Below, in pieces: positions 1-50,155 of a DNA stretch of 64,000 nt. A program made the translations under genes and the position numbers. The stretch covers positions 6,101 to 70,100 of the forward strand of contig CAMWVR010000001.1 of assembly GCA_947177795.1 (NCBI GenBank), read 5' to 3'. The stretch is from an uncultured Clostridia bacterium. Lineage in GTDB: Bacteria > Bacillota > Clostridia > Christensenellales > UBA3700. The first letter of the stretch is position 1; each line of letters opens with the position of its first letter. The notes below the pieces were generated by a model. That model ran no database searches, was not told the DNA's origin, and saw only the letters and a list, made by a program, of their open reading frames with translations.

Positions 1-758
1 GAAATAATTTTTTGCATGACTTGTCCAGTTGATTGTATTTTATCCTTTTTGTCATTCAGATAGTCGAATATTTTAGATAAATCGGAATACTGCGATCTAT
101 CAATTGAAAGATCTTTGTATCTTGGATGATTATCTGGTAAATAAACTGGTTGCAGTGTAATATAATTTATTCCATTTTCTATAGCCCAATCAATTAGATC
201 GTAAGCAAATTTTAAATTGTATTTTGTTAAAACACTATAAATTCCTACATCATAGCTTAAAAAATACTCCTTTCGCAATTGCAACACGTGTTTTATATTT
301 GCTAATGCGTTATCTCCATATAGTCGAGTTCTATTATTGATTTCAATGATATTAGAATCAATTGAAGTAGAAATCATTTTAATCATTCCTTTCTTAAGCA
401 TCACATCTATAGATTGCGGCCAAAAAGAGAAATTTGATAACAAGCACACATTAATGCCATTATTATTAAATTGAGCAATTATATCTTCTAGATCATCTCT
501 TAAAAACGGCTCGCCACCACATATATGTACCACTTCCAAGCCTTTTTTTGCTAAAAAGGCAATTCCATTGCAAATATCTTCAAACGAGGCCTCACGCGCT
601 ATGGAGTTTTGCGCTAAATAGGAGCTCCCATCGAAAGTTCCATAGCAGTAAATACAATTTGAATTGCATCGTGAAGTAATATGCCAAAGTGCACACTTCC
701 TTTTAGGGGAAGGTACTTCTACTTCAGCGAACGAATTTCTAATCAATACATTTGGCAT
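1..758 (-). CDS. radical SAM enzyme; 3' end runs off the window
   Basis: Absent from the ORF track because there is no stop in the window. My translation from the ATG at 756-758 reads MPNVLIRNSFAEVEVPSPKRKCALWHITSRCNSNCIYCYGTFDG...VVHICGGEPFLRDD...ISTSIDS. It contains the CxxxCxxC cluster (CNSNCIYC) and a GGEPFL SAM-binding motif. The start lies 4 nt after the stop of the upstream ORF. Confidence 0.8.
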   Translation of the reverse strand, partial: MPNVLIRNSFAEVEVPSPKRKCALWHITSRCNSNCIYCYGTFDGSSYLAQNSIAREASFEDICNGIAFLAKKGLEVVHICGGEPFLRDDLEDIIAQFNNNGINVCLLSNFSFWPQSIDVMLKKGMIKMISTSIDSNIIEINNRTRLYGDNALANIKHVLQLRKEYFLSYDVGIYSVLTKYNLKFAYDLIDWAIENGINYITLQPVYLPDNHPRYKDLSIDRSQYSDLSKIFDYLNDKKDKIQSTGQVMQKII

Positions 759-762
759 AATT

Positions 763-2952
763 CTATTCCTTACTTTTTTTCATATAGGTAGATCGCAATA
801 TTTCTTCGCATGGATGAATATCAAAATAGGTCCATACATCATTAATATTTCTTTTGAAAGCATAAAACCATTCGGCTAGCAAAGGAGCCTCATCCAAAGG
901 AAGCTTTCTGTCTCCTAGAAAATATATTTCCTTACGCAGGTCATAGTGACGGTTTAATGATTCCTTCACAAGATTAACAATCTCTGCATTAATTAAATCA
1001 ATAATGCTGTAAGTCAAACTAATTGTGTCCTTTCTATAAAAATTAACAGGATACCCATCTGCGATTAAAGTAATACTTTTACCATTGGAATTATAAATAA
1101 AGCTACACTCCGTTCCGAAATTTTTCCTTGTAATTTTAATGGAATTTATTTCGTCAGCAATTTCATTCTCCAAATGATGGTGACTACCATCAAAGAATTC
1201 AATTACACTTTGAAATTCAACACGTTTAGAAGATGCACTTGCTAAATAGATATGGGAAATATTGCTACAAATAAACTGCCTAAGCATTTCAAAAGTAAAA
1301 GAAGAGTTTCCTGTTGCTCCAATGATTATAATATCATCTGCGTCAGTAAAAGGAAATAGGTTGTCATCACATACTATGGTGAAACCATCATTTTTAGCGG
1401 CTTGTATTATCTTTTCAGAGATATCATATACATATACATTGCATTTCATTGCTTTTAGCGATAATGCAAGATTCCTGCCTATACTACCATATCCAATAAC
1501 CACGACTGTATGATAGGATAAAAAACAGTCGGCCATATATAATAAATAATTTAATTCATCAATAACACGGCGAGCGACAAAAAAAGACTCCATTCTCATT
1601 TTAATATTAGAACGTGCTACCGTTAACACGGGGTAATTAAGCGAATTTGTTTCATAGAAATGTAGGCATCTTCTTACCCCAGACGCCGTTTGTTCTATGC
1701 TACCAATTATACGATTTCTATCAATTAATCCTTTTTTAATTTGTTTATCTAATCTAACGTAATGAAACCCTCCGTCCTCTACTATTAAAAGTCTTAAAGA
1801 TCTATCTTCATTTAATTTAGGAACAATTACCTCTTCTATTGCATAATCAATTAATTTATCCATTGTAGCACTAAAATCATCAACTGTTTCAATGTTTTTT
1901 TTATCATCTTTTAGAAAGAATTGACCATTATCTACATTGGCATAAAGTGTTTTATAAATTGGAACGGGTGCTATTTCATAATTACTATACGGAATAGCGA
2001 TATATATTAAAGAAGACGACAGACTAGCAAAAAGCTTGTTTAATTCTAGGATATCTGTTAAATAATGGTTAATATGTAGTATTATAGTTTTTTTCGAGTT
2101 TGCAGTATTAATTTGTAGTGCCACTTTATTTGTTGTAGGCATATTCTCACAACGATAAACTGTATCATTGTCTGGAAGCTTTATCCCTGTAAAAGTATAT
2201 ATTGTTGAAAAGAATTGTTTGATTGGGAGCATCATCCATTCTTCTGCAGACATTGAATCGCTCGATGAGTCTGAATCTATATTAAATAACTTATCTTCTC
2301 CAATAATTTTTGAGTAATTTTTTGTGGAAAGGTCAAGCAATAATCTTTTTATTGAAAAAGCGGCTGATTCAAAACCAAATTTATAGATGGGATGAGAGAA
2401 ATATCTTTTGTATGCAATAGATGGTTGATAAATTTCACTACTAACATCTAGATAATGAAGAAAAATTATATCGGATATTATCACCTTGTTATCCTCATTA
2501 ATAAATATGCCTACTGGATCAATATTGCCGCACAATATGTGTTGGTTGTTGCATAATTGCAAATAGTTGCAACTTGAACTAAGTATTTGTGTTAATAATG
2601 AGATATGTTCTATTTTAGTAAAATCCAAATGGGATAATGGAATACATCGTTTGTATGCATAATAAATCGACTGCGAATTATTATCCCAGCCTAAGTCTTC
2701 CAATTCATCATATAGAGAGGGATTATTCCTCCGTGATTTTTCTATTGCTACATGGAGGAGATCAAAATCATCACGAGTACAGCTCTTTAGTTGTATTAAT
2801 AAAACAACTTTATTTTTTGCAAACGAAAACGCGTAACTTATTATTTTCTTTTCAGTAAAATATATTATTTTATGAATTCTGTACTGCAGGTTAGATATTT
2901 TTTCGTCACTATTTATACTGTCGATCCTATTATAAAGTTCTTCAAAATTCAT
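763..2952 (-). CDS. fusion protein: unknown N-terminal region plus adenosylhomocysteinase-like NAD-binding C-terminal domain
   Basis: 729-aa ORF. The C-terminal ~400 aa carry SAH-hydrolase family signatures in the canonical order: LLIVEDGG (cf. DDGGD), GSIEQTASGVRR (cf. EETTTGVHR), VVVIGYGSIGRNLA (Rossmann GxGxxG), DIIIIGATGN and ADGYPVNF (cf. AEGRLVNL). The N-terminal ~330 aa are unassigned. HILCGNIDPVGIFINEDNKVIISD is only weakly kinase-like. Confidence 0.7.
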   Translation of the reverse strand: MNFEELYNRIDSINSDEKISNLQYRIHKIIYFTEKKIISYAFSFAKNKVVLLIQLKSCTRDDFDLLHVAIEKSRRNNPSLYDELEDLGWDNNSQSIYYAYKRCIPLSHLDFTKIEHISLLTQILSSSCNYLQLCNNQHILCGNIDPVGIFINEDNKVIISDIIFLHYLDVSSEIYQPSIAYKRYFSHPIYKFGFESAAFSIKRLLLDLSTKNYSKIIGEDKLFNIDSDSSSDSMSAEEWMMLPIKQFFSTIYTFTGIKLPDNDTVYRCENMPTTNKVALQINTANSKKTIILHINHYLTDILELNKLFASLSSSLIYIAIPYSNYEIAPVPIYKTLYANVDNGQFFLKDDKKNIETVDDFSATMDKLIDYAIEEVIVPKLNEDRSLRLLIVEDGGFHYVRLDKQIKKGLIDRNRIIGSIEQTASGVRRCLHFYETNSLNYPVLTVARSNIKMRMESFFVARRVIDELNYLLYMADCFLSYHTVVVIGYGSIGRNLALSLKAMKCNVYVYDISEKIIQAAKNDGFTIVCDDNLFPFTDADDIIIIGATGNSSFTFEMLRQFICSNISHIYLASASSKRVEFQSVIEFFDGSHHHLENEIADEINSIKITRKNFGTECSFIYNSNGKSITLIADGYPVNFYRKDTISLTYSIIDLINAEIVNLVKESLNRHYDLRKEIYFLGDRKLPLDEAPLLAEWFYAFKRNINDVWTYFDIHPCEEILRSTYMKKSKE

Positions 2953-2969
2953 CTTTTGTAAATTTCAGT

Positions 2970-3347
2970 CTACTCCTCATCATAATATATGCTATTATCT
3001 GGGGTCCAAGCTGGAGCACAAACAACTATAAACTCTAGATCACAGTCGCCTTCACAAAAAATCTGGTGCTTCTCATTTTGCTGAATCAAGATAGCATCTC
3101 CAGGTGTAAGATGATAGTCCTTATCATCAACTACCATTTTAGCAAATCCCTTCAATATATAATAAGTTTCTTCTGCAATAGGATGAGAATGCTTTTGCGA
3201 TGAACAATTCTTAGGAATGATAACATACCCAAAACTATGGTACAACGCTTTTCCTAATTCTATAGGGGCCCCTATCATCTCAAAAACTTGTTCCCCAGTT
3301 TTACTAACACAGGGCGCTTTGACGAAATCTTTTCTTGTTAGTCTCAT
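2970..3347 (-). CDS. cupin domain protein
   Basis: The ORF 2970..3392 contains the cupin_2 pattern HSHPIAEETYYILKGFAKMVVDDKDYHLTPGDAILIQQNEKHQI. I prefer the internal start MRLTRKDF at 3347 because AAGGAG lies 7 nt upstream. Confidence 0.75.
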   Translation of the reverse strand: MRLTRKDFVKAPCVSKTGEQVFEMIGAPIELGKALYHSFGYVIIPKNCSSQKHSHPIAEETYYILKGFAKMVVDDKDYHLTPGDAILIQQNEKHQIFCEGDCDLEFIVVCAPAWTPDNSIYYDEE

Positions 3348-3445
3348 AAAATTCTCCTTAATTAATAAAATTATATTTATATTATAAAACATTTCAACTC
3401 AAAAGTCAATGTTTTTCTGTAATTGTTAATGGTTTTGTCACTTTG

Positions 3446-4144
3446 TTAGTTCATAAGTTCTTTTTTATATTTGTAATAGCTATTTCTACTACACCCACAT
3501 AGTTTAATAACTTCATCATCAGAAAGACTTCCGCCAAAACTCTTGGAATGAGTTTGTATTATCTTCTTACAGTCTATGGACTTCTTCGTAGTTAGGCTAG
3601 TACCTTTCACCAAACCTATTTGACTTCCCTTTACCTTGCCTTCTCTCATTCCTTCTGATATTCTTTGATGCAAGTCTGTTACTTCCTTTTCTGACTGCTC
3701 GAATGCTACCTTAATTTGTTGTTGAGCGAGTTTCATCAATAGTTTATTTACAAGTTCCATATTACCTACAAAATATTCGTCAATAGCATCGTTACCTGTA
3801 TTGACTTCTATATCCAAAACCTTTGCTACTGACTTCCTATAGACTTCCGTATTTATATGGGGCTCTTTAAGAAAAACTAAATTTATATCTTTGTTGAACA
3901 ATTCTTGATAGTTTGCAAACCCTTCGTCTGCATTTCTACTCATACGGCTCACGCTGTCAAAAACTACAATATCCCCACTCCTAAGCATCTTCTTCAACCT
4001 CTCCCACTCTGGACGAAGTGTAGTTGTACCGGTATAAAATTCGCTTTTAATTATTGCTGATGGGTAGACTGACGTTATGTTTGTTATCTGCCTATCTAAC
4101 TTTTGCTTTCTTGTACTTACTCTAACGTATCCGTATATTGCCAT
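3446..4144 (-). CDS. serine recombinase (resolvase/invertase family)
   Basis: N-terminus MAIYGYVRVSTRKQKLDRQ carries the catalytic Ser motif, followed by DSVSRMSRN. The C-terminal part LSDDEVIKLCGCSRNSYYKYKKEL is HTH-like. Confidence 0.9.
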   Translation of the reverse strand: MAIYGYVRVSTRKQKLDRQITNITSVYPSAIIKSEFYTGTTTLRPEWERLKKMLRSGDIVVFDSVSRMSRNADEGFANYQELFNKDINLVFLKEPHINTEVYRKSVAKVLDIEVNTGNDAIDEYFVGNMELVNKLLMKLAQQQIKVAFEQSEKEVTDLHQRISEGMREGKVKGSQIGLVKGTSLTTKKSIDCKKIIQTHSKSFGGSLSDDEVIKLCGCSRNSYYKYKKELMN

Positions 4145-4158
4145 ACTCTTTCTCTCCG

Positions 4159-4263
4159 CACCAAAAGAAACTATACTTACTTTTGGTACAGACCTGATAC
4201 GGGATTATATCCCTGAAGTCAAGCAATTTTGGTACAAATTATTTTAAGGATTGTTTTGGTACT
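4159..4263. promoter_or_regulatory. res-like recombinase site cluster (four copies of TTTTGGTAC, one inverted)
   Basis: GCACCAAAAG (4159-4168, inverted) and CTTTTGGTACA (4180-4190) form an inverted pair around a 12-bp core. Further direct copies lie at about 4227-4236 and 4254-4263. All sit immediately upstream of the recombinase start. Confidence 0.45.
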
Positions 4264-4271
4264 ATACCCCT

Positions 4272-5327
4272 TTAATTGTTTGTCCTAGAATTTAACAACT
4301 CTGTCAAATAATCTGCTACTTCTTTTGTGATGGTCACCGCTACGTCTTTGTGATGCGTTTGTATCCAAATGTGAAACATATCTCTTTGCCATGTAGCAAA
4401 ATAATGTTTATCGTCTAATATCATTTCAAGTTCCAATCCTCTCGGATTGATAGGAGCATAACGAACATATTTCTTTTTTACCGAAAGAATAGTTAACATA
4501 TTCAAACTATAGACTTGTCTTTGTGGCACACAGCGATTTTGCCCGTCAAGTTTGGTCAAATAATCAGCAATCTTTTGAGTTGCACAATCGCAAAGATACT
4601 TACACTCATAACGTAAATACATATCACCTGCATTCAATAATGGAAAATCTCCACCTTTAACCCAAGCAATAAGTTTGTCAGAGAGTCTATTCTGCTGTTG
4701 CTCTATAGCACCGAAGAAAGTAGATTTCTTCAAAAAAGTCTGTACACTGCAGACGTCTTGTCTTATATCATCCTTTTTCCCTACACTTATGAATTGATAG
4801 CGAAAGTCTGGTAACCTTCTAAAATATATCTTTTTATCTATGAATGTCGCACACAAGAACCCATCATCCATCTGTATTGCCTTCTTGTATTCTACAAGGA
4901 AATCTCGAAAGCACTCATTCAATAATTTTACCTGCTCGGATGTTGGCGCATAAATTTTATTCTTTCGTCTTATTCTTCCACCTAGCAAAGTAAATTCGTC
5001 TTCATAAAAATAGTGCTTGACGGCATAGGTACGGTTATTCCCTGATACCCCTTTAAATATAATTTTCTCATTATCAAATTTAGGTCGGCTTCTATCTGCA
5101 CGAATTCTCTCCAACCAATCCACAACTAACTGATTGCTCAACAAATCGTGAACTTCTGCCCAATCTACAAGCCATGTCAATGGAATATTATCTAGTTCTT
5201 GCTTTGAAAAACTACGAATATCCTCCACCGACACTTGCTCTAACTTCTCAAAGTATTTATCATCTAAACAGTTGTACTGCCATATATATTGTTTGCTTTT
5301 CAATTTAGATTGCTTGTCGTTTTCCAT
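4272..5327 (-). CDS. hypothetical protein
   Basis: 351-aa ORF with ATG start and island-like AT-rich composition. I recognise no motif. Confidence 0.6.
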   Translation of the reverse strand: MENDKQSKLKSKQYIWQYNCLDDKYFEKLEQVSVEDIRSFSKQELDNIPLTWLVDWAEVHDLLSNQLVVDWLERIRADRSRPKFDNEKIIFKGVSGNNRTYAVKHYFYEDEFTLLGGRIRRKNKIYAPTSEQVKLLNECFRDFLVEYKKAIQMDDGFLCATFIDKKIYFRRLPDFRYQFISVGKKDDIRQDVCSVQTFLKKSTFFGAIEQQQNRLSDKLIAWVKGGDFPLLNAGDMYLRYECKYLCDCATQKIADYLTKLDGQNRCVPQRQVYSLNMLTILSVKKKYVRYAPINPRGLELEMILDDKHYFATWQRDMFHIWIQTHHKDVAVTITKEVADYLTELLNSRTNN

Positions 5328-5656
5328 TTCCTAACCTCAAAATTTATTCCATAAAGAGGCATTGAAAAAAGCCCATCGTTCGATGAGCTTTGATATGCTA
5401 AATATGAAAACCCATCATTCAGATTTTAGCACCTTGCCTATTGGTAGGTTGCTGTGTGTTCACAGTGTCTGTCACTCCCACACTCTTCATGGTAGTATAA
5501 TTATATAACTTTTTTACAGAGAAGTCAACTAAATCCAACAATACCCACATAATATATTACTCATTCCAAAACTATCTTCTATAATTGAATTTAAATATGA
5601 CCAAATGTAACTCACTCAAATGATTTACTTTGAAATAACAGCGTGATATAATTATA

Positions 5657-5745
5657 TTGCTACACATCTTAATAACCTTATGTAAAGGGAATAGTTTTGC
5701 AAAAAATGTATTCTCTCGCCTTTGCATAAGGATGATGTGTAGCAA
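5657..5745. repeat. 89-nt imperfect palindrome
   Basis: TTGCTACACATC (5657-5668) pairs with GATGTGTAGCAA (5734-5745). CCTTATGTAAAGG (5676-5688) pairs with CCTTTGCATAAGG (5719-5731), with one mismatch. Confidence 0.6.
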
Positions 5746-5807
5746 CATTGAGAGATATGTTTTCAGCGTATTTCTCATTGAAATACGCTTTTTTATTGGA
5801 GGTATAT

Positions 5808-6002
5808 ATGAAAAAGAATATCGCTACAATATTTTTATGTATCTTATGCATGTTAATTTTTGTTATTTGCTTAGTTGCCTGCACACCAAACAACAGCAAT
5901 CAAAATCCTGACAACAATTCAGAAACGCTCAGTCTAATATCGGTTCAGGCGTTTCACAGTCTAATAGTGGCTCAGATAATTCTCAACCCAATAATGGTTT
6001 AG
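5808..6002 (+). pseudogene. lipoprotein signal-peptide fragment, out of frame with the downstream LRR ORF
   Basis: GGAGG RBS precedes ATG at 5808. MKKNIATIFLCILCMLIFVICLVAC has a lipobox (LVAC). The natural Ser/Asn/Gln-rich linker continues in the frame of ORF 6047..8014, which is open from 5912. This implies a 1-nt frameshift around 5912-5935. Confidence 0.55.
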
Positions 6003-6046
6003 ACGATTCTCAACAGCACACTCATAATTATTCCGCCACATGGAAA

Positions 6047-8014
6047 ATGGACAAAAATAGTCATTGGTTAGAATGTGAAACTTGTAATAATAAAACTCAA
6101 CTCGAAAATCATATTGCAGGAGCAAACGCAACAGAAACTACTCCACAGACCTGTACTGTGTGTGGCTATATTATTGCCACTCCAATAGGTCATACTCATA
6201 ATCCAACTCCTGTTGCTGCTAAATCTGCTACTTGCACTGAAGATGGAAACTTGCTTTATTACGTTTGTTCATGTGGAAAATGGTTTCTTGATAGCAATGC
6301 TACTAATGAAATAATTGACCACACCAGTATAGTTACAAAGGCTACTGGACATACATACTCTACTGACTGGACATATAATTCCACTTACCATTGGCATTCC
6401 TCAACATGTGAACATTCTGCTGAAAGAGGTGACGTTTCCGAGCATACTTTTGTGAATAACATTTGTTCAGTTTGTACTTATACCAAACCTACTACACCAA
6501 TTGCAATTTCAGAAGTCTACTTAAATAAATCTTCAATTAATTTAGATATTAATGAAAGCGAAACACTTGTAGAAACAATTATACCTACAAATGCAACAGA
6601 AACTATAAATTGGATAAGTACTGCCCCATCTATCGCTACAGTGAATAATGGTAAAGTAACAGGCATAAGTAATGGCTCAGCCGTAATTATCGCAATTTCT
6701 CCAAGTGGAATTACTGCAACGTGCGAAGTCACAGTTGCAGAAAATACTAATGGCTTTACATTTGAAGAGTTTGGCGAAGGATATGCAGTTGTTAATTATA
6801 CTGGCAAAGAAACTTCATTAGCGATTCCATCAACATACAATGGCAAGCCTGTCATTTCTATAGGTAGAATATACGGATACCCAATCGGTGAAGGCTTAAT
6901 AAATAGCTCTAATATCAAAAATGTCACTCTTCCAAATACATTAAAATACATAGGCGTCCTTTCTTTTGCAAACTGTACGTCTTTGCAAACCATTAATATT
7001 CCAAACAATGTAGTTGCTATTTATCAAGCTGCATTCTCAGGTTGCACTTCCCTTTCGAGCATAACAATTGGAAGTGGAATAAACACTATTCCTGATAAGT
7101 GTTTCTACAACTGTAAAACTTTAACAGCCGTTAGCCTACCGGATACAATTGAAAGCATTGGACAGCAAGCATTTCAAAATTGTGTTTCTTTAAAAACTTT
7201 AGATTTAGGAAATAAGTTAGAATCTATCGGCGAACAAGCATTCTTTGGTTGTGAAAAACTTGAGAGTATCGATATACCAAGCAGTATTAAGTATTTTGAC
7301 TTCTTCCCTAGATTATTTGAAAAGTGTAATAGTTTGAAAAAATTAACTGTTCCATCGCTTTCGTGCGAACTAACCGCTTTATTTTATGAAAATGCTATAC
7401 CCAGCTCATTAATAGAATTAATTGTTTTGGGTGGAAATACAATCAAGGAAGGTGCATTGTCAGGATGTGGAAGTCTTGAAAAACTAACACTCCCTTTCAT
7501 AGGTGCAAACGCTTCAGAAACTACAGCATCCCCATCAACTCTATTCGGTTACGTATTTGGTAAAACAAGCTATACCGGTTCAGCCACAACTAGACAACGT
7601 TATGTTTTAGGAGATACTTATACAACATACCACATCCCTACTAGCTTGAAGCATGTTTCCATATTGGGAGGGGTAATTTTTTTCGGAGCATTTATTAATT
7701 GTGTTAACCTTGAAAGTATTAGCATTTCTAATAACGTAACAAGCATAGGCGACGATGCATTTGAATTATGTAAGAGTTTGACAAGCGTATCATTTGAAGA
7801 TAACTCACAATTGACGAGTATAGGCAATCTCACATTCTATAACTGTAGCAGTTTGTCAAACATGGTAATACCAAGTAGCGTGACAGGTATAGGCGAATAT
7901 GCATTCTCAGGATGCAGCAGTTTGACTATCTACTGTGAGGCAAGTAGTACGCCAAGTGAATGGAGTAGCAATTGGAATCCCGACAATAGACTTGTTGTAT
8001 GGAATTATAAATAA
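6047..8014 (+). CDS. BspA-type leucine-rich-repeat surface protein with Big_2-like Ig domain
   Basis: Cys/His-rich repeats (HTHN...C..CG) are followed by an Ig-like segment ISEVYLNKSSINLDINESETL...TATCEVTV. Then come many LRR_5-type repeats (IPNNV..I...AFSGCTSLSSITI). The frame is open upstream to 5912. Confidence 0.8.
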   Translation: MDKNSHWLECETCNNKTQLENHIAGANATETTPQTCTVCGYIIATPIGHTHNPTPVAAKSATCTEDGNLLYYVCSCGKWFLDSNATNEIIDHTSIVTKATGHTYSTDWTYNSTYHWHSSTCEHSAERGDVSEHTFVNNICSVCTYTKPTTPIAISEVYLNKSSINLDINESETLVETIIPTNATETINWISTAPSIATVNNGKVTGISNGSAVIIAISPSGITATCEVTVAENTNGFTFEEFGEGYAVVNYTGKETSLAIPSTYNGKPVISIGRIYGYPIGEGLINSSNIKNVTLPNTLKYIGVLSFANCTSLQTINIPNNVVAIYQAAFSGCTSLSSITIGSGINTIPDKCFYNCKTLTAVSLPDTIESIGQQAFQNCVSLKTLDLGNKLESIGEQAFFGCEKLESIDIPSSIKYFDFFPRLFEKCNSLKKLTVPSLSCELTALFYENAIPSSLIELIVLGGNTIKEGALSGCGSLEKLTLPFIGANASETTASPSTLFGYVFGKTSYTGSATTRQRYVLGDTYTTYHIPTSLKHVSILGGVIFFGAFINCVNLESISISNNVTSIGDDAFELCKSLTSVSFEDNSQLTSIGNLTFYNCSSLSNMVIPSSVTGIGEYAFSGCSSLTIYCEASSTPSEWSSNWNPDNRLVVWNYK

Positions 8015-8052
8015 AAATTTAGAGGGGGTAAATTTATAATCACCCTAATGTC

Positions 8053-8087
8053 AAAAAGCACCGCAACTCTTTAGCGGTGCTTTTTTC
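8053..8087. terminator. rho-independent terminator, A-run/T-run flanked (bidirectional)
   Basis: AAAAAGCACCGC-aactcttta-GCGGTGCTTTTTT lies between convergent genes. Confidence 0.75.
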
Positions 8088-8279
8088 TTTTAAATATCTT
8101 TATGTTGATAAGTTGTTGAACTCAAATCTACTGCCAACTATATCGCCCACTAATGTTCCCCACATAATTAAATCTCCTATTAATTCTGTGCGACTATTAT
8201 ATTTACTTTATTATTCAAAAGTCAAGTATCAGTCTATATTTTGCAAAGTTGCCTTGATGATATATAAATTTTTTTCTTA

Positions 8280-9667
8280 TTATTTCCCTTCTACCTTCTT
8301 ATACTCATTAAAACTTTCCTCAATATATCTATCTATAGTTTCTGAATAAGTTTCCTTGTCTTCACCTTCTAAGCCACTACAGTAGAAACAATCGTACAAT
8401 AACCAACATTTACGTCCCGATTCCAACAATCTCTGCAAAACTCGCAAGTACACACAAGATTCAGCCAAGAATATTTCAGTTCCATATATCTTGCCACAGG
8501 TTTTTTCGATGGCAACTTTTAATTTTCGCATTTGTTCGTCAACATCTTGCTTCGTAACGCCACTTTTTTTCATATCACGCCAAGTATGATTAACCATATT
8601 TCTCTCAGTGCTGTCAAAATACGCTCTCATAAACAACTTTTTTATTGCTTCCCGCATTTTGTCTGTAAAAGCCTCGTCTTGGTTACAATTCATATAAATT
8701 TTCCCGTATAAATCTACATTTTCTAAAAACCACTCATCATTATTTAAAGATAATGTCAATCTTGGCACAGACGCTCTTACATCTTTCTCTTTTTCTTTAT
8801 CTAATCCATACTTCTCTAATAAAGCATCTCTATCTGCTTTTTTAGTATTATTTAGTGCGGTTGTAGCCCGTATCCCAATTTTCGTAATACTTTTCCTTGA
8901 GTCAGACCATTTAAATGACGGCTTAAACACAATGCTCATTTCTTCCAAACCAGTATAATATATTTCATTTATAGAATCTGCCAATTTTTGATAATATTCT
9001 AATTGTGGATAGTTTTTATTTAAACACCTCGTAAGAAACTTCTCAAACTCAATTTCGCCCATTCCTTCAGGTTTACGTAATCTTAAATTTGATTTAAACA
9101 ACACTCTTGCTTTATTAAAGTTTGAAAGTTTGTCATCATCGTCAATATCTTTACTATCATAGTCATAGTTCTTAATAACATAAGGCTCGATATTATTGTC
9201 TTTACAATACTTAATAAAATTATCTGCGTTCTCCCTATAGAATTTGTATTCACAACATTTGTTCCTCTCGGAAGAATTGTAATTGTAATCAATATTATAA
9301 CCTAGGCTCAAAAGCCCCATATTAATCATTTTTTTTATAGCTTTGCCTATGGTTGTGTGACACCCCAAATATGATGATTTGTTTTACTTCTTGTAGATAC
9401 ATATATCATTGAACATTTTTTTTGCACATATTGGTGTCTCTTAATAAAAGTAAGTATTTTGCTTAATCCTTCTCTCCACTTTTTTTCTGCACCTTTTGCC
9501 GTAGAGCAAGGGGGGATATTTAAAAGTGGTTGTTTATAATAAGGAGCATCTGCTATATCAGCTAACTCAACTTCATCATCTTCTATGTTCAATTTGATTT
9601 TTATATTGCCTAACCTATTAGCAATTTCTTCATATGAAATCATATATATCTCCGTCTTTTGCAACAT
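8280..9667 (-). pseudogene. HTH / replication-initiator-like protein split into two ORFs by a frameshift
   Basis: ORF 9347..9667 ends ...MIYVSTRSKTNHHIWGVTQP*. ORF 8280..9368 begins with a TTG-derived M at GCHTTIGKAIKKMINMGLLSL. Joined, they give a typical winged-helix recognition segment. The shift lies in CATCATATTTGGGGTGTCAC near 9350-9370. Confidence 0.5.
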
Positions 9668-9797
9668 TAATTAATAATAATATTATAATATCATATAATA
9701 TGAAATTCAACAAAAAAAATAAAGATTATTTATGTCATTAAGGCAACTTTGCAAGACAGACAAAATTATGCTTATTTAATAGTTAATCAAGTGGATT

Positions 9798-11066
9798 TTA
9801 TTGGCTGGTTATCTTTTTATAGTTACTAATCATCTTCTGTAATCTAGGCAAGTTACGTAGGCTCTTATCTTTTAGATTGAATAATTCCCCTACTATTCGT
9901 CTACTGATAATAGTCTTAGGATTACTTGCAATATAGTTTTCTACTTTACTGTTGAACTCTTTACAGCATTTGTCGTCTATGGTTTCCCAATCCCATTTTT
10001 TACTTCTATATGGGCTATAAGAACCTTGTGGTTTGGGTTTGTCGTATGTTCCCATTAATACCTGCCTTACTACTTCGTGGCATACATTCATTGCGTTGGC
10101 TATCTCGTATGTATTCTTACCTTGTTGACTTAGTTCTCTAACTCTTCTATCAAAGGTAATATGCTTTGGCTCGGTATAACCTTTATATAAGCACAACTCT
10201 TTAGGTGTTATATCTTCAAACATTGCAACTAATAATATTTCATAGGCATTGAAGAACTTATTCCTAAATATATAAGCAAGCCGAAGTTTATTAATATCAT
10301 AGGACTTTAATCCATCATAATACATTGCCATATCTCTTTCTAGTTCAACTAAATTCCTTTGTTCCCCACGTGGCGATACGTACTCATCTTTTAACTTAAC
10401 TGTAAGATAGTCTCCTAGCGATATATCCGTATCTAAATCAAACGGCTGATGAATAACGTCATTAATATACTTTGCTACTCTTATATTTATATCGTCTTCT
10501 TTATATTCTACTACCTTACCTACTCCACTTGAAGATATAATTTGCTCTAACGGAATTAAAGTTGCACTCCTTCCTTTATTGGGTAACACGGTATCAACTA
10601 ATTCACAGTTATGAAATGGACAAACGTGGATTGACGGTATTAAATGCTGAATATGAAAATAACACTCCCCATACTGCCGTCTATCTTCTTCTACACACTT
10701 GGGGCAATAACTCAAAAAATATTCATTCTTCCTTTGTGATATTGGGAGGTACTGACGAAGTAACGGCTTATTTGTCATAGCGTAATTATAGGCTTTTACT
10801 CTTTTCTCTTTGGGTAGAAATCTTGCATAATAGGCAAATAGAGTATGCTCTAATAGTAATTCTTTATATGGAATAAATCTTTCAAGTGTCTTTCTAAATT
10901 CTTTGCTTAAAGAGTTAATAAAATTATACTCTGGATTCTCATTCCACCGAGCAAATACGTCATTTGCAAACCCTCTGTGCCACACATAACCACTATGAAC
11001 ATAAAGCCTGCATAGATAAGAGTATACGCTCTCATCAGGATAAATAGTGTCAATATACTTTATCAT
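9798..11066 (-). CDS. tniQ: TniQ/TnsD-family transposition target-selection protein
   Basis: The N-terminal YPDESVYSYLCRLYVHSGY is the TniQ signature. The zinc-finger pattern CPKCVEED...YFHIQHLIPSIHVCPFHNCEL is present. The start overlaps the tnsC stop by 4 nt. Confidence 0.85.
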   Translation of the reverse strand: MIKYIDTIYPDESVYSYLCRLYVHSGYVWHRGFANDVFARWNENPEYNFINSLSKEFRKTLERFIPYKELLLEHTLFAYYARFLPKEKRVKAYNYAMTNKPLLRQYLPISQRKNEYFLSYCPKCVEEDRRQYGECYFHIQHLIPSIHVCPFHNCELVDTVLPNKGRSATLIPLEQIISSSGVGKVVEYKEDDINIRVAKYINDVIHQPFDLDTDISLGDYLTVKLKDEYVSPRGEQRNLVELERDMAMYYDGLKSYDINKLRLAYIFRNKFFNAYEILLVAMFEDITPKELCLYKGYTEPKHITFDRRVRELSQQGKNTYEIANAMNVCHEVVRQVLMGTYDKPKPQGSYSPYRSKKWDWETIDDKCCKEFNSKVENYIASNPKTIISRRIVGELFNLKDKSLRNLPRLQKMISNYKKITSQ

Positions 11067-12280
11067 AGTTTGACATACTCCACGTTGATATTATCTTTGA
11101 GCAAGTTGATAAACAAAGTAAGGTCTTTCTTTGACTGCTTTCTGATACTATATAGCAACTGCTGATTATCTAATGGAACGACTACACTTGACTTTACTTC
11201 TTTAATTTCCTTCGTCTTTGCTACCTTTATCTCATCCAACTTGATATACGGTGACATCGTTGCAAAGTTCTCTTGGAAAGTATTCTCAAATTCAATAGTA
11301 CTTAGTTCCTCTTTGCCATTTAATATTACGTTACGTTGCGTTTCTACAAACAAACTGACGAGCATAGATGGGATGCCATTAGATAACTTATATAAAGTCC
11401 TTGCGAACTCGGCATTAAACTCAACCCTTTTTAAAGTGTACTGATATTTAAACAGTATTCTCACGAAGTTAAAATAGTATTCGTCATAGTCCATTTTCTC
11501 TATAGATATTCCTATAGTCCTACGACTTAAATACTCCTTTGTTTCAAAATATCTATTAGCCGATTCATTCCCCACAAAGCAAACTGCAATGTTGGATTGA
11601 TTAACAAGTTGAGTTAAATAATTTATAAGAGTAATTCCTTTTCTGCTGTCATTTGCCACACGCTATATCTCATCTATTACAAGAAGTGCAACATGATTTA
11701 TTAGCACGTTGCTCACCGCAGCTAATAATGCGTCTGTGGTTGCTGTAACGTAGTTATTTGCAACGAAATAATTCGTGCCGAGCAATCTGTCAACCCCTTG
11801 TAAAATTGCGTATAAAAGGCTTTTAAATGAACCGTCTGAAACGCACTCTATGAACAGGATCGGGATAATCTCTCGATATGGTTTTTGGCTAATGAGTATT
11901 TTGTCTGCAATAATGTCAGCACATCTTTGGACACTCGAAGTTTTCCCTAATCCTGCAGTTCCTGTTATCTTAAAAGATTCCAAACCGCCAACCAAGCCAT
12001 AGCGTTTCAAGCCTTTAATTGCCCTAAAATTATCGTTCTGCAAGCTAACTTCCAATAGCGTACTCTTCTTTTCCAACGAATTAAGAATCGCCATATAAAG
12101 CCTATTATAGACGTATAGTGTTATCTTGTTGGGGATATAGAGTTTGTATACGTCTATAAGTGCTGTAAGTCTATCGGGCATCTCTATTAAGCCTTCTTGA
12201 TAGTGTGGCAATACTGTGAGTGCCTTAATAAGTTCCTCGCTTGAAAGGTACTTATTTAACTGTTCTTTTATTCTATCCAT
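11063..12280 (-). pseudogene. tnsC: TnsC/TniB-like AAA+ ATPase interrupted by an in-frame TAG
   Basis: Walker A is GTAGLGKTS and Walker B is LLVIDEI. The next codon (11663-11665) is TAG, and the same frame continues RVANDSRKGITLINY.... The two track ORFs (11663..12280 and 11063..11659) are in one frame. Confidence 0.8.
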
Positions 12281-14060
12281 TATTACCTCCTCTGTTTATC
12301 TCCGACTTTCTATGTTGGCGTACATTTGTTAAGTCTACCTTTTGACCTAAGATAGAGTTGGCAATCAGTTCTATATCCCTTGATAGGTCAATACTACCTT
12401 GTATAGCTATATCCTCAACACTTCTCTCTACTTGCTTCTTTTTCTCTTTTATAGCTTGTACTTCTTCCATATCCATATCGGTAAAATATGATTCTATAAT
12501 CTCAAAAGGTGTGTAAACGCCATTTTCGCACAGCCATACTCTACTTACATTGTTGGGATTGTAGGCAACAACACATTCGCCACCTTTTAGGTATCTTTCA
12601 GTATAGTTTAAATTCTTGTATCTTTCTTTATTTACGTGTAGTCCGTCTCTCTTAAAATAGCCTTTGCCTCTTGGTAATAATGTAAGCCAAAGCATTTCGT
12701 CATCAACTTTTATAAGGTTATTTTTGCTTGACGGCAGACAATAATTCCACAACTCATTTGCAAATGGCTGAACGATTCCTACAGTCTCATATGGTAGATT
12801 TATAATCCTCTTAGAGTTGTATTTGATAATGCAAAGCAAGACTATCTTTTCAAATTCTTTTAATGTGAGCGTAGCATTTTTCCTATAGTCAACACCGCCA
12901 CGCTCTTGATAGTGCTCAAATATTACGCCTTTATTTGCAAGTTCCGTCTTATAGGAGTTCTGTATGATACCAAAGAATCGCTCGACTAAACTCTTTTGGT
13001 CAGGACGATAAGGTGGAAGATTTATTATTTCTACGCCTAATTCTGCAACTTGAGAGAATGTCTCTGAAGTGTATTCTCGACCTTTATCCGTAACGAATTT
13101 GTGGGGTAAACTACTGCAGTCCCATGTGTTAGAATCTATCTCAATGCCAAACTTTTTACAATGCTCTTGCTTATCTGCAACGATATTCTCTATCAATGCT
13201 TTCAGTGAGTTTATACCCTTATCGAAGCATAAAGAATACCCCATACAAAGAGAAGTGTAACCATCCACGCAAGCCGTTAACGTTGGACGTCCCAACAATT
13301 CTCCTTTATCGTTGACTAAAAATATATCGCATACAGTACTATCAAATAATCCAACGCCTATAGAAGAGCAAAAGTCTCTGACATTACCGAGCATAACACG
13401 ATGATTTCTTAAGAACTCCCCCTTGCCCTCTCTCGATATAATCAGATTCTCTCGTTTTACTGTCTTATGGAAAAAGTAATCGAACTGCCTGAAGGTTGGG
13501 ATATGAGAGAGCAATCTACCTTGTTTATCACAGTACTTGTCTTTCAACATTCGGCGGTAGCACTCTATTAAAGGCATTTTAAGAGCATTGAAATAATATT
13601 TGTTCAATGCCCATCTATAGTTTTTCTCATCTGCTGTAAGCGGTTTTTCTTTGCATTTACTGTTGGGCAAAAAGATGCAGATGTCTTGGAAAGCTAAGTA
13701 ATCGCACAATCTACTCTTGATTGTATTCTTACTCAAATGAAACCTCTCGGCACATAAAGCAATGGCTTGATTTCTTTCGTAGTCATTTCCTACAGTTGGA
13801 ATGATAAAACTGATACTGCCATATTTGCTATGAATTATTTGCTTTTGCTGTTGAGAGAGACTGTCATAGCTCACAAGATTAACACCGACTCTTACTCTCA
13901 ACTCCTCCTCTTCTATCTGTAGATAATCTGATAAGAAGTCCTCGCCCACCCAATAAGGCATATTCCTCTTGACGCAATCAATAATCTGTATGCGGTCATC
14001 TTCAATAGTTAAGACCCTATAAATACAGTCGCCTTTATAGAATAAATCATTAATCTTCAT
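12273..14060 (-). CDS. tnsB: TnsB-like DDE (Mu/rve-type) transposase
   Basis: 595 aa. DDE context: STVCDIFLVND, FVTDKGREYTS, QKSLVERFFG. The stop overlaps the tnsC ATG (ATGGATAG). Confidence 0.88.
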   Translation of the reverse strand: MKINDLFYKGDCIYRVLTIEDDRIQIIDCVKRNMPYWVGEDFLSDYLQIEEEELRVRVGVNLVSYDSLSQQQKQIIHSKYGSISFIIPTVGNDYERNQAIALCAERFHLSKNTIKSRLCDYLAFQDICIFLPNSKCKEKPLTADEKNYRWALNKYYFNALKMPLIECYRRMLKDKYCDKQGRLLSHIPTFRQFDYFFHKTVKRENLIISREGKGEFLRNHRVMLGNVRDFCSSIGVGLFDSTVCDIFLVNDKGELLGRPTLTACVDGYTSLCMGYSLCFDKGINSLKALIENIVADKQEHCKKFGIEIDSNTWDCSSLPHKFVTDKGREYTSETFSQVAELGVEIINLPPYRPDQKSLVERFFGIIQNSYKTELANKGVIFEHYQERGGVDYRKNATLTLKEFEKIVLLCIIKYNSKRIINLPYETVGIVQPFANELWNYCLPSSKNNLIKVDDEMLWLTLLPRGKGYFKRDGLHVNKERYKNLNYTERYLKGGECVVAYNPNNVSRVWLCENGVYTPFEIIESYFTDMDMEEVQAIKEKKKQVERSVEDIAIQGSIDLSRDIELIANSILGQKVDLTNVRQHRKSEINRGGNNG

Positions 14061-14397
14061 TAAGTACTATCCCCCAATCCACTATTCCTTTAGACAACCA
14101 ATAATTCCTACTCTCATCAAGTATCTTAATGTAATATGGTTTAAGTAGCTTATCTTTATAGACACACTCTCTAACCATTATCTCGCCATTAGTTTTAATG
14201 CAATAAAAATCTGTAGTAAAACTGCCTTCTACGTTAGAGACATCTATAGGAACATTGCACTTTATCTCTGCTATCTCACTGCTTGAATCTAACTGACAGC
14301 CGTACTTGTACTGCAACTCACTGTAAGCATAAAATATCAAACGACACTTGCTCAGTTTCTTCTTCATTGTTACGCTATGAGTATTCTTGTTCCGCAT
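14050..14397 (-). CDS. tnsA: short TnsA-like endonuclease (restriction-endonuclease fold)
   Basis: 115 aa with the spaced acidic/lysine pattern YSELQY ... TTDFYCI ... RECVYK, like the TnsA E-D-K catalytic core. It overlaps the tnsB start by 11 nt. The assignment rests on position plus a weak motif. Confidence 0.55.
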   Translation of the reverse strand: MRNKNTHSVTMKKKLSKCRLIFYAYSELQYKYGCQLDSSSEIAEIKCNVPIDVSNVEGSFTTDFYCIKTNGEIMVRECVYKDKLLKPYYIKILDESRNYWLSKGIVDWGIVLNED

Positions 14398-14430
14398 CCT
14401 AAAAACTTCCTTTTTTTTCTTTAAATATTA

Positions 14431-14520
14431 AATTAAGAAGATTTTGCTTTTCGAATTTAAGAAGAATTTCACTCTTAAACTTATAAAATTCTTCTTTTTT
14501 CTATTTAAATTCTTCTTTAT
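14431..14520. promoter_or_regulatory. four copies of AAGAAGA(A)TTT, two forward and two inverted, between tnsA and the element end
   Basis: AATTAAGAAGATTTT (14431-14445) and AATTTAAGAAGAATTT (14454-14469) are forward. AAAATTCTTCTTTT (14486-14499) and TAAATTCTTCTTTAT (14507-14520) are inverted. Confidence 0.5.
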
Positions 14521-14544
14521 TTCTCATTTTGCTCAATCACTCTA

Positions 14545-14568
14545 TGTCTTCCGACAAGACTGATTTAC
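14545..14568. repeat. 24-bp terminal-repeat copy, inverted orientation (TGTCTTCCGACAAGACTGATTTAC)
   Basis: Perfect reverse complement of 14761-14784. Confidence 0.85.
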
Positions 14569-14638
14569 GCAAGCCAGACAATTTTCTTTGACACTTCCCC
14601 CAATCAAGTTAGGCTTGTTCCAAGTCTCCTAAGCATAG

Positions 14639-14665
14639 AAAAAAGACCCTACTTTTGTAAGGTCT
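14639..14665 (-). terminator. rho-independent terminator inside the transposon right-end region
   Basis: The minus strand reads AGACCTTAC-aaaa-GTAGGGTCT followed by TTTTTT. It is the first terminator downstream of rpsR. Confidence 0.6.
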
Positions 14666-14760
14666 CCTACTATTTTTTGTTTATTATATAGTTTTTTCTC
14701 TTTGTCTATCTTCCTACATTACTTACCTAATCTACTGCAAGTCTTTTTTGGTAGATTTGT

Positions 14761-14784
14761 GTAAATCAGTCTTGTCGGAAGACA
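14761..14784. repeat. putative Tn7-like right terminus (GTAAATCAGTCTTGTCGGAAGACA)
   Basis: It ends in ACA at 14784, 9 nt before the rpsR stop codon (14794-14796). It coincides with the abrupt change from AT-rich to ~50% GC sequence. Confidence 0.7.
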
Positions 14785-14793
14785 CCAACTGTC

Positions 14794-15045
14794 TTACTCA
14801 GCTACGTATGGGAGCAAAGCCATTTCTCTTGCCCTCTTGACAGCCTCGGTAACTACTCTTTGGTGCTTAGCGCACGTTCCGCTCATTCTTCTGGGAACAA
14901 TCTTGCCCTTCTCCGTGATGAACTTGCGCAATTTTGCAACGTCTTTATAATCTAATTCGTCCACACCGTCTGCGCAAAAGATGCAAACCTTTTTGCGTGA
15001 CATTTGCTTTTTAGCGGGACGCTTAACTACCTTTTCTTCGCTCAT
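14794..15045 (-). CDS. rpsR: 30S ribosomal protein S18
   Basis: [46 protein letters not shown] is classic S18. It sits in rpsF-ssb-rpsR synteny. Confidence 0.97.
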
Positions 15046-15062
15046 TGTCTTAAATCTCCTTA

Positions 15063-15488
15063 TTAGAATGGTAAATCGTCTTCGTCTACGGGAGTCAAAC
15101 CGCCGTTGTTAGACTTTGCGTTTGAGCCGTATCCATTATTCTCACTGCTTTGAGTGTTGTCGCCGTCAGTTCTGCCGGCGCCGGACGGAAGAAATTCAAC
15201 TTCGTCGGCAACTATGTCGTACGCCGTACGCTTGGAACCGTCCTGAGCGTCGTATTGGCGCGTCTGGATAGCGCCTACTACGCAGACCTTTCTGCCTTTT
15301 TGCAAAATCTTAGCGCAATTCTCTGCCAAGCCTCTCCAGCAAACCACGTTGAAAAAATCAGTAGCGTCGTTTTCTCTGCTGAATCTGCGATTGACAGCTA
15401 TTGAAAATCTGCAATAAGACACTCCGCTTTGCGTTGCGCCCGACTCGGGATCCCTCGTCAAGTTGCCTATCAATATAACTCTGTTCAT
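15063..15488 (-). CDS. ssb: single-stranded DNA-binding protein
   Basis: [17 protein letters not shown]-fold start, a Gly/Asn-rich tail and the terminal DDLPF motif. Confidence 0.97.
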
Positions 15489-15498
15489 AATCTTCTCC

Positions 15499-15780
15499 TT
15501 ACTTTTTGATAATCATTGATCTTACGACTTCGTCTGTAATACGGTTCATTCTCTTGAGTTCTTCGGGAACGTTAGCGGGAGCCGTAAAGTTTACCAAAAC
15601 GTAATAGCCTTCCGTGGTGTAGTCGATAGGGTAAGCGTATTTCTTGGTACCCCACTTGTCGGTGTTTTCGATTTCTCCGCCGTTTGACGTGATAACCGAA
15701 GCCATTTTGTCAACTACTTCCTGTTTTGCCTCGTCGGTAATATCATTCTTGATGATATACAACATTTCGTACTTGTTCAT
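15499..15780 (-). CDS. rpsF: 30S ribosomal protein S6
   Basis: MNKYEMLYIIKNDITDEAKQ...WGTKKYAYPI, at the first position of the S6-SSB-S18 operon. Confidence 0.95.
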   Translation of the reverse strand: MNKYEMLYIIKNDITDEAKQEVVDKMASVITSNGGEIENTDKWGTKKYAYPIDYTTEGYYVLVNFTAPANVPEELKRMNRITDEVVRSMIIKK

Positions 15781-15944: not shown

Positions 15945-16112
15945 TAGACTCTTCGACTCCACTGCGTTTCGCTCAGAGTGACGTAATTCTATATGTCACC
16001 TCGAGCGAAGTCGAGAGGTCTTATCCGTATTAGATTTCTCCGCTTCACTGCGTTTTGGTCGAAATGACATTGGATTTTGTCATTTCGAGCGAAGTCGAGA
16101 AATCTCTATCCG
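15945..16112. repeat. intergenic repeat cluster A (R-F-R-F units)
   Basis: Units are AGACTCTTCGACTCCACTGCGTTTCGCTCAGAGTGAC, GTCACCTCGAGCGAAGTCGAGAGGTCTTATCC, AGATTTCTCCGCTTCACTGCGTTTTGGTCGAAATGAC and GTCATTTCGAGCGAAGTCGAGAAATCTCTATCC. F and R units are imperfect reverse complements. Confidence 0.85.
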
Positions 16113-37146: not shown

Positions 37147-37382
37147 TGAGATTTCTCCATTTCGCTTCGCTCAAGCGAAATGACGTTGGCTGTGTCATTT
37201 CGAGCGTACTTCCGTGTCACCTCGAGCGTACTTCCGTGTCATTTCGAGCGTAGTCGAGAAATCTAATCATTTTATATCTTTGAGATTTCTCCACTTCACT
37301 GCGTTTCAGTCGAAATGACATTGGGTTTGTCACCTCGACATACTTCCATGTCACCTCGAGCGAAGTCGAGAGGTCTCTATCC
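37147..37382. repeat. intergenic repeat cluster C
   Basis: R unit, three truncated half-units (GTCAYYTCGAGCGTACTTCC), F unit, R unit, half-unit, then the F unit ending GGTCTCTATCC. Confidence 0.85.
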
Positions 37383-45187: not shown

Positions 45188-45406
45188 TTGAGATTTCTCC
45201 GCTCCACTTCGCTTCGGTCGAAATGACATTATGAGGTGTCGTTACTTCGACATTATTTTGTCACTCCGACATTCTTTTGTCATTTCGAGCGCAGTCGAGA
45301 AATCTAATCCTTTTTGTCACCTCGACCGCAGCGGAGAGGTCTAATCCTTTTATCTTCATACTGTTTGAGATTTCTCCGCTCCGCTTCGCTTCGGTCGAAA
45401 TGACAT
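45188..45406. repeat. intergenic repeat cluster E
   Basis: R unit, two half-units, two F units, then TTATCTTCATACTGTTTGAGATTTCTCC...TCGAAATGACAT. Confidence 0.85.
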
Positions 45407-47572: not shown

Positions 47573-47876
47573 GTCACCTCAACACTCTTCTGTCACCTCG
47601 ACACTCTTCTGCCACTACGATACTCTTCTGCCACTCCGACACTTTTCTGTCACCTCGAGCGAAGTCGAGAGGTCTCTATCCGTTTATCTTCATACTGTTT
47701 GAGATTTCTCCATTCCGCTACGCTACAGTCGAAATGACATTTCATAGATTCTTCGACTTCGTTTCACTACGCTCAGAATGACTCGTTTAGAGCGATTGTG
47801 ACACATTCAACGAGTCACCCCGAGCGTAGTCGAAGGGTCTTTTTGTCACCTCGACCGCAGCGGAGAGGTCTCTATC
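47573..47876. repeat. intergenic repeat cluster F
   Basis: Four tandem ~19-bp half-units (GTCACCTCGACACTCTTCT-like), then F, R, R-variant and two F units. Confidence 0.85.
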
Positions 47877-49960: not shown

Positions 49961-50155
49961 TTGAGATTTCTCCGCTCCACTTCGTTGCGGTCGAAATGAC
50001 ATTATTGATATCCGTCACTTCTTCACTATTCCCTATTACTTATTACCTAATTTTCTCGTCACCTCGACCGAAGCGGAGAGGTCTCTATCCGTTTAAGTTA
50101 ATCTGTTGAGACTTCTCGACTTCGCTCGAAGTGACATTGAATTAGACTATGACAC
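49961..50155. repeat. intergenic repeat cluster G
   Basis: R unit, spacer, F unit (GTCACCTCGACCGAAGCGGAGAGGTCTCTATCC), then the palindromic R-variant GAGACTTCTCGACTTCGCTCGAAGTGAC. Confidence 0.85.

Follow-up and report, generated by a model that had tools for sequence, protein, structure and literature searches.

A probable Tn7-type insertion site behind the ribosomal protein gene rpsR in an uncultured Clostridia bacterium

A Tn7-like gene set ends nine nucleotides behind rpsR

We analysed a 64,000-nucleotide (nt) stretch, hereafter the window, of contig CAMWVR010000001.1 from assembly GCA_947177795.1 (uncultured Clostridia bacterium, UBA3700), in which an AT-rich island carrying transposition genes lies directly behind rpsR, the gene for ribosomal protein S18. 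A preliminary description of this DNA had proposed a Tn7-like element 10 bp downstream of rpsR, with a tnsA-tnsB-tnsC-tniQ core reading inward from the element's terminus. The open reading frames (ORFs) are arranged as described, and Pfam, Protein Data Bank (PDB) and fold comparisons support their assignment (Table 1). The terminus, ...GGAAGACA, does end at 14784 and the rpsR stop codon does occupy 14794-14796, but the distance between them is 9 nt. Read inward from 14784, the right terminus begins TGT, as TGTCTTCC..., and a 396-nt gap separates rpsR from the first ORF of the island, which encodes 115 amino acids (aa). An abrupt change in composition, also pointed out earlier, is evident here: the GC fraction, 0.28-0.39 between position 1 and about 14500, rises to 0.44-0.51 thereafter.

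Table 1. Features of the window at and around the rpsR insertion site.
Feature	Position	Strand	Basis or remark
rpsF	15499-15780	-	ORF list
ssb	15063-15488	-	ORF list
rpsR (ribosomal protein S18, 83 aa)	14794-15045	-	ORF; same protein annotated PF01084; closes rpsF-ssb-rpsR
CCAAC (GTTGG on rpsR strand)	14785-14789	.	5 bp abutting right end; predicted target-site duplication
U1, 240-bp right-end module	14545-14784	-	Inverted repeats; alignment with relatives
U1 outer arm, true right terminus 5'-TGTCTTCCGACAAGACTGATTTAC (rpsR strand)	14757-14784
U1 inner arm, inverted copy resembling left end	14545-14572
Terminator-like hairpin and U-run inside U1	14639-14668	-	Oriented to stop rpsR transcripts
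Four AAGAAGA(A/T)TTT sites, two direct and two inverted	14435-14517	.	Just upstream of tnsA'
tnsA' (115 aa)	14050-14397	-	TnsA fold; PF08722 in family
tnsB (595 aa, DDE transposase)	12273-14060	-	Pfam, PDB sequence match
tnsC (AAA+ regulator)	11063-12280	-	Pfam; in-frame TAG at 11663-11665
tnsC halves, one frame	11663-12280 (205 aa); 11063-11659 (198 aa)	-
tniQ (422 aa, TnsD-like target selector)	9798-11066	-	PF06527
Cargo	4272-9667		106-aa (-), 362-aa (-), 655-aa LRR/Big_2 (+), 351-aa (-)
Small serine recombinase, resolvase type (232 aa)	3446-4144	-	PF00239, 1.8e-17
Promoter TTGACT-17-TATAAT	3409-3381	-	Near-consensus
Cupin	2970-3347	-
729-aa protein	763-2952	-	AdoHcyase/NAD-binding domain
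Viperin-like radical-SAM protein	1-758, cut by window edge	-	PADLOC pVip 1e-19

The target selector TniQ matches PF06527 in Pfam (3.8e-17) and, in a search of PDB sequences, the N-terminal part of Tn7 TnsD (8glu, 1.2e-10). It is laid out as an N-terminal zinc-ribbon TniQ domain followed by a C-terminal extension, and its Cys/His positions are invariant in an alignment of homologues. TnsB shows weak rve and Mu-transpos_C matches in Pfam and a precomputed HTH_TnsB annotation, and among solved structures it is closest by sequence to Tn7 TnsB (7pik, 4.5e-31). TnsC is matched by AAA_22/TniB over its N-terminal half, the 205-aa piece that precedes an in-frame TAG located directly after Walker B (...VIDEI-TAG-RVANDSRKG). 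Four relatives have GAA (Glu) at the position of this stop codon and closer relatives possess an intact 405-aa TnsC; the same nonsense codon recurs in L001, a 99.99% identical contig from another sample. Because the nonsense mutation hits an essential transposition gene, the window copy is probably inert, and most likely immobile unless complemented.

The unusual shortness of TnsA, which had been remarked upon, proves to be a property of the family, whose members measure 113-118 aa throughout. The 115-aa protein of the window has no Pfam match, and PF08722, the TnsA N-terminal model, is matched by 26 of the 30 family members. An AlphaFold2 model (pLDDT 92.6) submitted to Foldseek retrieved Tn7 TnsA (1t0f/1f1z; TMq 0.80, E 1e-6), with the next match at E 0.05; a profile of the family searched against PDB sequences gave no match to TnsA, which was reached by fold comparison alone. 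To judge by this model, the protein, here called TnsA', corresponds to the N-terminal part of TnsA, with its nuclease fold, and lacks the C-terminal domain. Its invariant residues include Q29, D63, E77 and C78, with a motif TTDF...VRECV. Where a PD-(D/E)xK site should have its lysine, almost every member has Val, and the first acidic position may be E, D, N or A, so that on inspection of the motif the active site looks degenerate. The island also encodes a small serine resolvase, which is kept in every relative examined (L005, L007, L008 (60-61% identity), L012, L026, L036 and L042-L051).

The right end is a module with two inverted arms

The terminal 24-mer at 14761-14784 has an inverted copy at 14545-14568, 192 nt from its partner, giving two matches in the window where none are expected. 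The inverted terminal sequence had earlier been thought to lie beyond the left edge of the contig segment, which overlooked this copy inside the window. The two copies belong to a 28-nt inverted repeat (27/28 matches) whose arms delimit a 240-bp module, which we term U (U1 for the copy next to rpsR). The recurrence of this module as a direct repeat, described below for relatives, was absent from the preliminary description, as were the tnsC TAG and the conserved serine resolvase.

Inside U1, folding clearly reveals a terminator-like hairpin (-17.4 kcal/mol, z -4.5), which escaped a simple terminator scan. The U modules of L010, L039, L043 and L012 have equivalent hairpins, and all five U types examined carry a hairpin facing rpsR; insertion therefore replaces the displaced rpsR terminator. 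A comparison of 14300-15100 with Rfam returned chance-level matches only, and U is thus not a known RNA gene. A metagenome scan for the U arm recovered two loci only. The AAGAAGA(A/T)TTT cluster is the sole one in the island, and its motif is kept upstream of tnsA' in L005, L010, L012, L039 and L007; these sites are probably an operator/promoter region or accessory TnsB sites. Candidate TnsB-binding repeats are the conserved blocks in U and the AAGAAGAATTT repeats near tnsA', and no clear repeat array matching the terminal sequence was found in the ends.

Relatives occupy the same site at a constant distance from the coding sequence

A search with TniQ yielded 76 homologues. Relatives whose TniQ is 43-85% identical to that of the window occur at the same place and in the same orientation in at least seven host neighbourhoods, and all homologues with a readable upstream flank, down to 43% identity, lie directly behind rpsF-ssb-rpsR with tnsA' proximal to rpsR, apart from a single place (L051). 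The gene neighbourhood is that of the window in L010/L011 (TniQ 79% identical), TilS...DnaA-like in L039 (64%) and SpoIIE-DAGK-poly(A) polymerase in L012/L013/L016 (64%); the most divergent of these elements, at 43%, are L007 and L042-L050. One identical 423-aa TniQ, P0056, is found at rpsR in nine of its ten places, in at least four different neighbourhoods. The presence of identical TniQ in several host backgrounds implies that the element spreads actively.

At the tenth P0056 place, L051 (ERZ15185904 NODE_478, 6100-6160), the element end abuts ...GGTACTTCCCTCCTGAACGCAGGAAGAGATAAA beside another gene. This insertion may be an off-target event at a pseudo-site faintly like the Leu-Leu-Pro region of rpsR, or may reflect a second targeting mode. 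A more distant relative, with TniQ 31% identical and a TnsD-type extra domain, lies behind guaA; there (L009, 4600-5200) the element sits just past the 3' end of the guaA-like gene (...TIEFE, then stop) and has a repeated TTTTTGGGA in its end.

Across relatives at rpsR, the stop codon and the TGT terminus are between 6 and 11 nt apart, depending on the locus. Measured instead from the Leu-Leu-Pro codons, and counted by hand from the printed sequence, the terminus lies 25-27 nt away in eight loci: at 25 nt in L023, L049 and the window, at 26 nt in L010, L012, L007 and L043, and at 27 nt in L039. S18 is one codon longer in L007 and L049, and the spacer is correspondingly shorter. Such constant spacing is the geometry expected if the selector reads coding sequence, as TnsD does at glmS, where insertion takes place at a set distance from conserved coding sequence. 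The conserved 3' coding segment of rpsR (..MALLPY..) is the presumed TniQ recognition sequence. The shared site, orientation and spacing fit the earlier proposal of a TniQ-directed insertion facing the 3' end of a conserved gene. We consider it very probable that the island represents the side nearest rpsR, at least 14.8 kb long, of a Tn7-family transposon, and that its TnsD-like TniQ reads the conserved 3' coding end of rpsR and sends the right end first to a point 25-27 bp further downstream, here 9 nt past the stop.

Strain variation at the insertion boundary

Strains with identical S18 allow the boundary to be located to the base. L017/L019/L022 and L003 share ...TAAGACAGTTGG (...TAA GACAGTTGG) with the window and diverge from it exactly at 14784/14785. 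Past this point, L017/L019/L022 continue with GCGAGAAGTG..., a terminator and another gene set, and contain no U; from their sequence they are the best candidates for an unoccupied site. The CCAAC that abuts the right end of the element in the window is common to these three, which read TAAGACAGTTGG/GCGAGAAG.. across the junction. The comparison with related genomes proposed at the outset has thus supplied unoccupied-looking sites.

L003 continues past the boundary with a different U-type arm. It was considered as an empty site and rejected, its tail resembling the outer arm of an L012-type U. In L023/L024 a related arm and then other genes follow rpsR, and contig L001 terminates precisely at 14784. 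Downstream of rpsR this one species is thus highly polymorphic, and strains with different DNA, or none of this DNA, at this position exclude the possibility, raised before, that it is ancestral AT-rich sequence.

Two further loci deserve description. At L017 10257-10418 the rpsR flank has an inverted repeat of its own, GTTGGGCGAGAAGTG, with copies 132 nt apart; the repeat is present in L017/18/20/25, and L019 and L022 hold a single copy. L004 (GCA_029067405.1, 6847-6881) comes from a strain with 99.985% identity to the window; here TAG and then CTGGCTCTGATAAACATCTGCCGCGGCCGACG, at the contig end, come after U, in place of the tns genes or the flank to be expected. We rejected this locus as a clean solo U, since the 32 nt of GC-rich DNA after U and TAG are found in no other locus; it may be an insertion sequence, or a rearrangement at the junction of U and E (E being the segment inward of U).

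Complete relatives carry the module at both ends

Complete elements with perfect 5-bp target duplications were identified in two relatives, each on a single contig. ERZ14208516 NODE_114 (L039 and L036) reads rpsR-TAA-TACCTT-TTATG, then U1 (236 bp), then TAGAC...E...TATAATA, then U2, then TTATG-GCGGG.... Its segment E holds tnsA'BCQ, cargo, the resolvase and three genes; U1 and U2 are identical, the duplication TTATG flanks the entire U-E-U, and the host DNA past U2 contains the same helix-turn-helix (HTH) and DUF6809 genes that lie behind rpsR in L017. In L043 (Ga0530620_0012, a 927-kb contig of a distant lineage), U1 equals U2 at 399/399 positions, TTTAG is duplicated and U2 is succeeded by the native terminator of rpsR. 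A flanking 5-bp duplication, of the kind anticipated for the window copy, is seen in both complete relatives. In each, outer and inner arms match at the two extremities, and U is a module of 240-400 bp with both end types, present as a direct repeat at both ends with all genes between. E joins the arms as ...ACA/TA...TA/TGT... (slashes marking the joints) in all lineages, and has neither terminal inverted repeats nor a second AAGAAGA (AAGAAGAATTT) cluster at its far side. A second U is predicted to the left of the window, ending ...GTCGGAAGACA and followed by GTTGG GCGAGAAGTG..., the L017-type flank.

The same plan is found in L026 (L010 type), where TTATTTGT(TG) comes after U2 and leads into what is left of an older element, namely U3 and genes for an HTH protein, a 300-aa protein and a radical-SAM protein; this remnant lies directly behind rpsR in L023, L024 and L034. 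Its position beyond U2 indicates that elements accumulate behind rpsR as a stack, the most recent arrival lying closest to the gene. At L034 1200-1260 (Ga0209064_1000013), an arm-like TCGTTCGACAAGACGATG... cuts short the older element's HTH gene (85 aa), which suggests another related insertion nested in the stack.

A possible cointegrate mechanism and its alternatives

The U-E-U arrangement has the form of a cointegrate: U is present in two direct copies, a donor backbone E separates them and the duplication lies to the outside. In the mechanism that we propose, the non-coding U, at 240-400 bp, would be the actual mini-transposon, with the tns genes, cargo and resolvase riding on the donor circle. 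TnsA' would be a non-cleaving remnant, TnsB, guided by TniQ, would move U by copy-and-paste from a circular E+U donor, and this would fuse the whole circle into the chromosome behind rpsR as a cointegrate. Recombination of U with U by the resolvase (or RecA) would then release the circle, with the resolvase serving as an excisionase, and the element would live as, or pass through, an E+U circle. Systems of the Tn7 type without functional TnsA yield cointegrates, with duplicated transposon copies and insertion of the backbone (PMC8188705), and a comparative study predicted a replicative pathway where tnsA is lost and a resolvase acquired (PMC8649781). We favour the cointegrate model because the TnsA' motif is degenerate, the resolvase is conserved, U1 and U2 are identical in two lineages and the arrangement is kept down to 43% TniQ identity; the location of the genes outside the unit that carries both end types was also counted in its favour. 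We nevertheless hold it tentatively, and the proposal that U is a mini-transposon, that the circle integrates and that U-by-U recombination excises it, in effect transposition turned into integration, may well be wrong.

Several points weigh against these readings. For rpsR-directed insertion, one of the ten P0056 places (L051) lies away from rpsR, TniQ binding to rpsR is deduced from geometry, and there is no second U at positions 1-14544, the left end of the window copy lying off-window. For the cointegrate mechanism, the inactivity of TnsA' is read from motif inspection, neither a circular E+U contig nor a clean solo U with target duplication was found, and L004 has U, TAG and then unrelated GC-rich DNA. 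The same static structure would moreover be left by a compound transposon moving on its outermost ends, in which two U copies flank the tns genes and cargo, U-E-U moves by way of the outer end of U1 and the inner end of U2, by cut-and-paste or replicatively, and the remaining inner ends are redundant. We regard such a transposon as the main rival, only slightly less likely than a cointegrate. The 5-bp duplications do lie outside U1 and U2 and the outermost ends are proper inverted repeats, and the U copies of L007, which are only about 94% alike, also count for it and against a cointegrate, since a difference of ~6% fits copies that are inherited and not regenerated with each move. However, the supposedly redundant inner ends are conserved across lineages in which TniQ is only 43% identical, and the base-for-base identity of U1 and U2 in two independent lineages, automatic for a fresh cointegrate, would here need gene conversion. 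A compound transposon also leaves no role for the conserved resolvase or the degenerate TnsA motif.

Other explanations separate U from the tns genes or dispense with transposition altogether. U might be an independent miniature inverted-repeat transposable element (MITE) residing behind rpsR, beside an unrelated tns island whose true right end lies at about 14541. The rpsR-U-TAG of L004 followed by different GC-rich DNA could be understood in this way, as could a Logan contig of L012 type that starts inside the inner arm and the resemblance of the AAGAAGAATTT repeats beside tnsA' to an end-binding site array. We think this improbable, however: in five lineages U has diverged along with the tns genes, and it stands to either side of them, no terminal inverted repeats and no second AAGAAGA cluster occur in the DNA between its two copies, target duplications enclose U-E-U and not E, and U is not multicopy in the window. 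Least credible of all is integration at rpsR by the serine recombinase, with U as a duplicated att site. The rpsR 3' end is a known hub for integrase-borne staphylococcal islands (SaPI4 family; PMC8407400), direct repeats flank the island and the recombinase is conserved; but that recombinase is a 232-aa protein of resolvase/invertase type and not a large serine integrase, there is no conserved tyrosine integrase, and the unoccupied-looking sites have no U. Duplications of 5 bp outside U, TGT...ACA ends and a full tnsA'BCQ set are hallmarks of DDE transposition.

Relation to known elements

The element resembles Tn7 in its homologous TnsB and TnsC, TnsD-like TniQ and TnsA-fold protein, in its TGT...ACA ends and 5-bp target duplication (the duplication being seen in complete relatives), and in that the tnsA-side right end is turned towards the 3' end of a conserved, essential gene, which stays intact, with insertion keeping a fixed distance of about 25 bp to a conserved coding motif. 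It differs in targeting rpsR where Tn7 targets glmS, in having a TnsA reduced to a 115-aa N-terminal domain with Val at the canonical Lys, in lacking TnsE and in conserving a resolvase; each end is, moreover, a directly repeated 240-400-bp module with both end types, which leaves the tns genes outside the minimal unit bounded by inverted repeats. Cointegrates of IS26 type and pseudo-compound transposons likewise consist of a segment bracketed by two direct copies of a short mobile unit, with the duplication outside, and a circle made up of that segment and a single unit can be released. IS26 encodes its transposase inside the unit and shows little target specificity; here, by contrast, the repeated unit is non-coding and the machinery lies in the bracketed segment.

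A TnsB-TnsC-TniQ core accompanied by a resolvase is shared with the Tn5053/Tn402 family and with CRISPR-associated transposons (CASTs) of type V-K, for which cointegrates with two direct transposon copies and donor backbone between them are expected (PMC8188705, PMC8649781). Those elements have their genes inside the transposon and no TnsA, whereas a TnsA-fold gene is conserved here; Tn5053 inserts at res sites and V-K CASTs follow a guide RNA, whereas the present element targets the end of a protein-coding gene. Islands of the SaPI4 family use the same landmark, the rpsR 3' end, as a safe harbour, by means of a tyrosine recombinase and a 15-bp att core overlapping rpsR (PMC8407400); unlike the element described here, they have no tns genes, TGT...ACA ends or 5-bp duplication.

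In line with what was suspected in the preliminary description, rpsR was not found among described Tn7-like attachment sites: we came upon no paper linking Tn7 or Tn7-like elements to rpsR, in a search that was thin on subscription journals, and papers naming both concern, by their titles and abstracts, unrelated subjects. Neither rpsR nor S18 is mentioned in the main text of a survey of Tn7 target selectors (PMC10293859) or in that of a survey of 6,549 Tn7-like elements (PMC8649781). Thus rpsR does serve as a docking site of Tn7 type, apparently one not reported before, and what is new here is this attachment site together with the unusual end architecture and gene set. It would join the short list of essential-gene ends recognised by Tn7-type selectors, and it is found in gut Clostridia and Bacilli, groups that have been little surveyed for such elements. 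The combination of a minimal 115-aa TnsA, a resolvase and direct end modules offers a natural case of the choice between cut-and-paste and copy-and-paste, and the system could be a compact, protein-guided, single-site insertion system. For annotation, variable DNA behind rpsR in these bacteria can be read as stacked mobile elements with defence-type cargo.

Cargo and neighbouring genes

Beyond tniQ, the cargo at 4272-9667 gave no PADLOC matches. Its 655-aa leucine-rich-repeat (LRR)/Big_2 surface-type protein (6047-8014, +) is encoded on the strand opposite to the tns genes, and the relative L005 has a weakly similar LRR protein at about the equivalent position (26-30% identity, tblastn). The block at 1-3409 is either further cargo or an older resident island, and its viperin-like, 729-aa and cupin genes, driven from the promoter at 3409-3381, look like an anti-phage defence cassette. 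No exact-protein matches are on record for the 729-aa protein or for two cupin versions. The near-identical contig L001 stops exactly at 3373, which indicates that the block is separable from the transposon core.

On the host side, an intergenic repeat with core GTCAYYTCGAGCGAAGTCGAGARRTCT has eight copies in the window against none expected, at 15995-16105, 37238-37376, 45279-45305, 47649-47675 and 50058-50135. All lie beyond 15990 and none in the island, in agreement with what had been reported of this repeat family.

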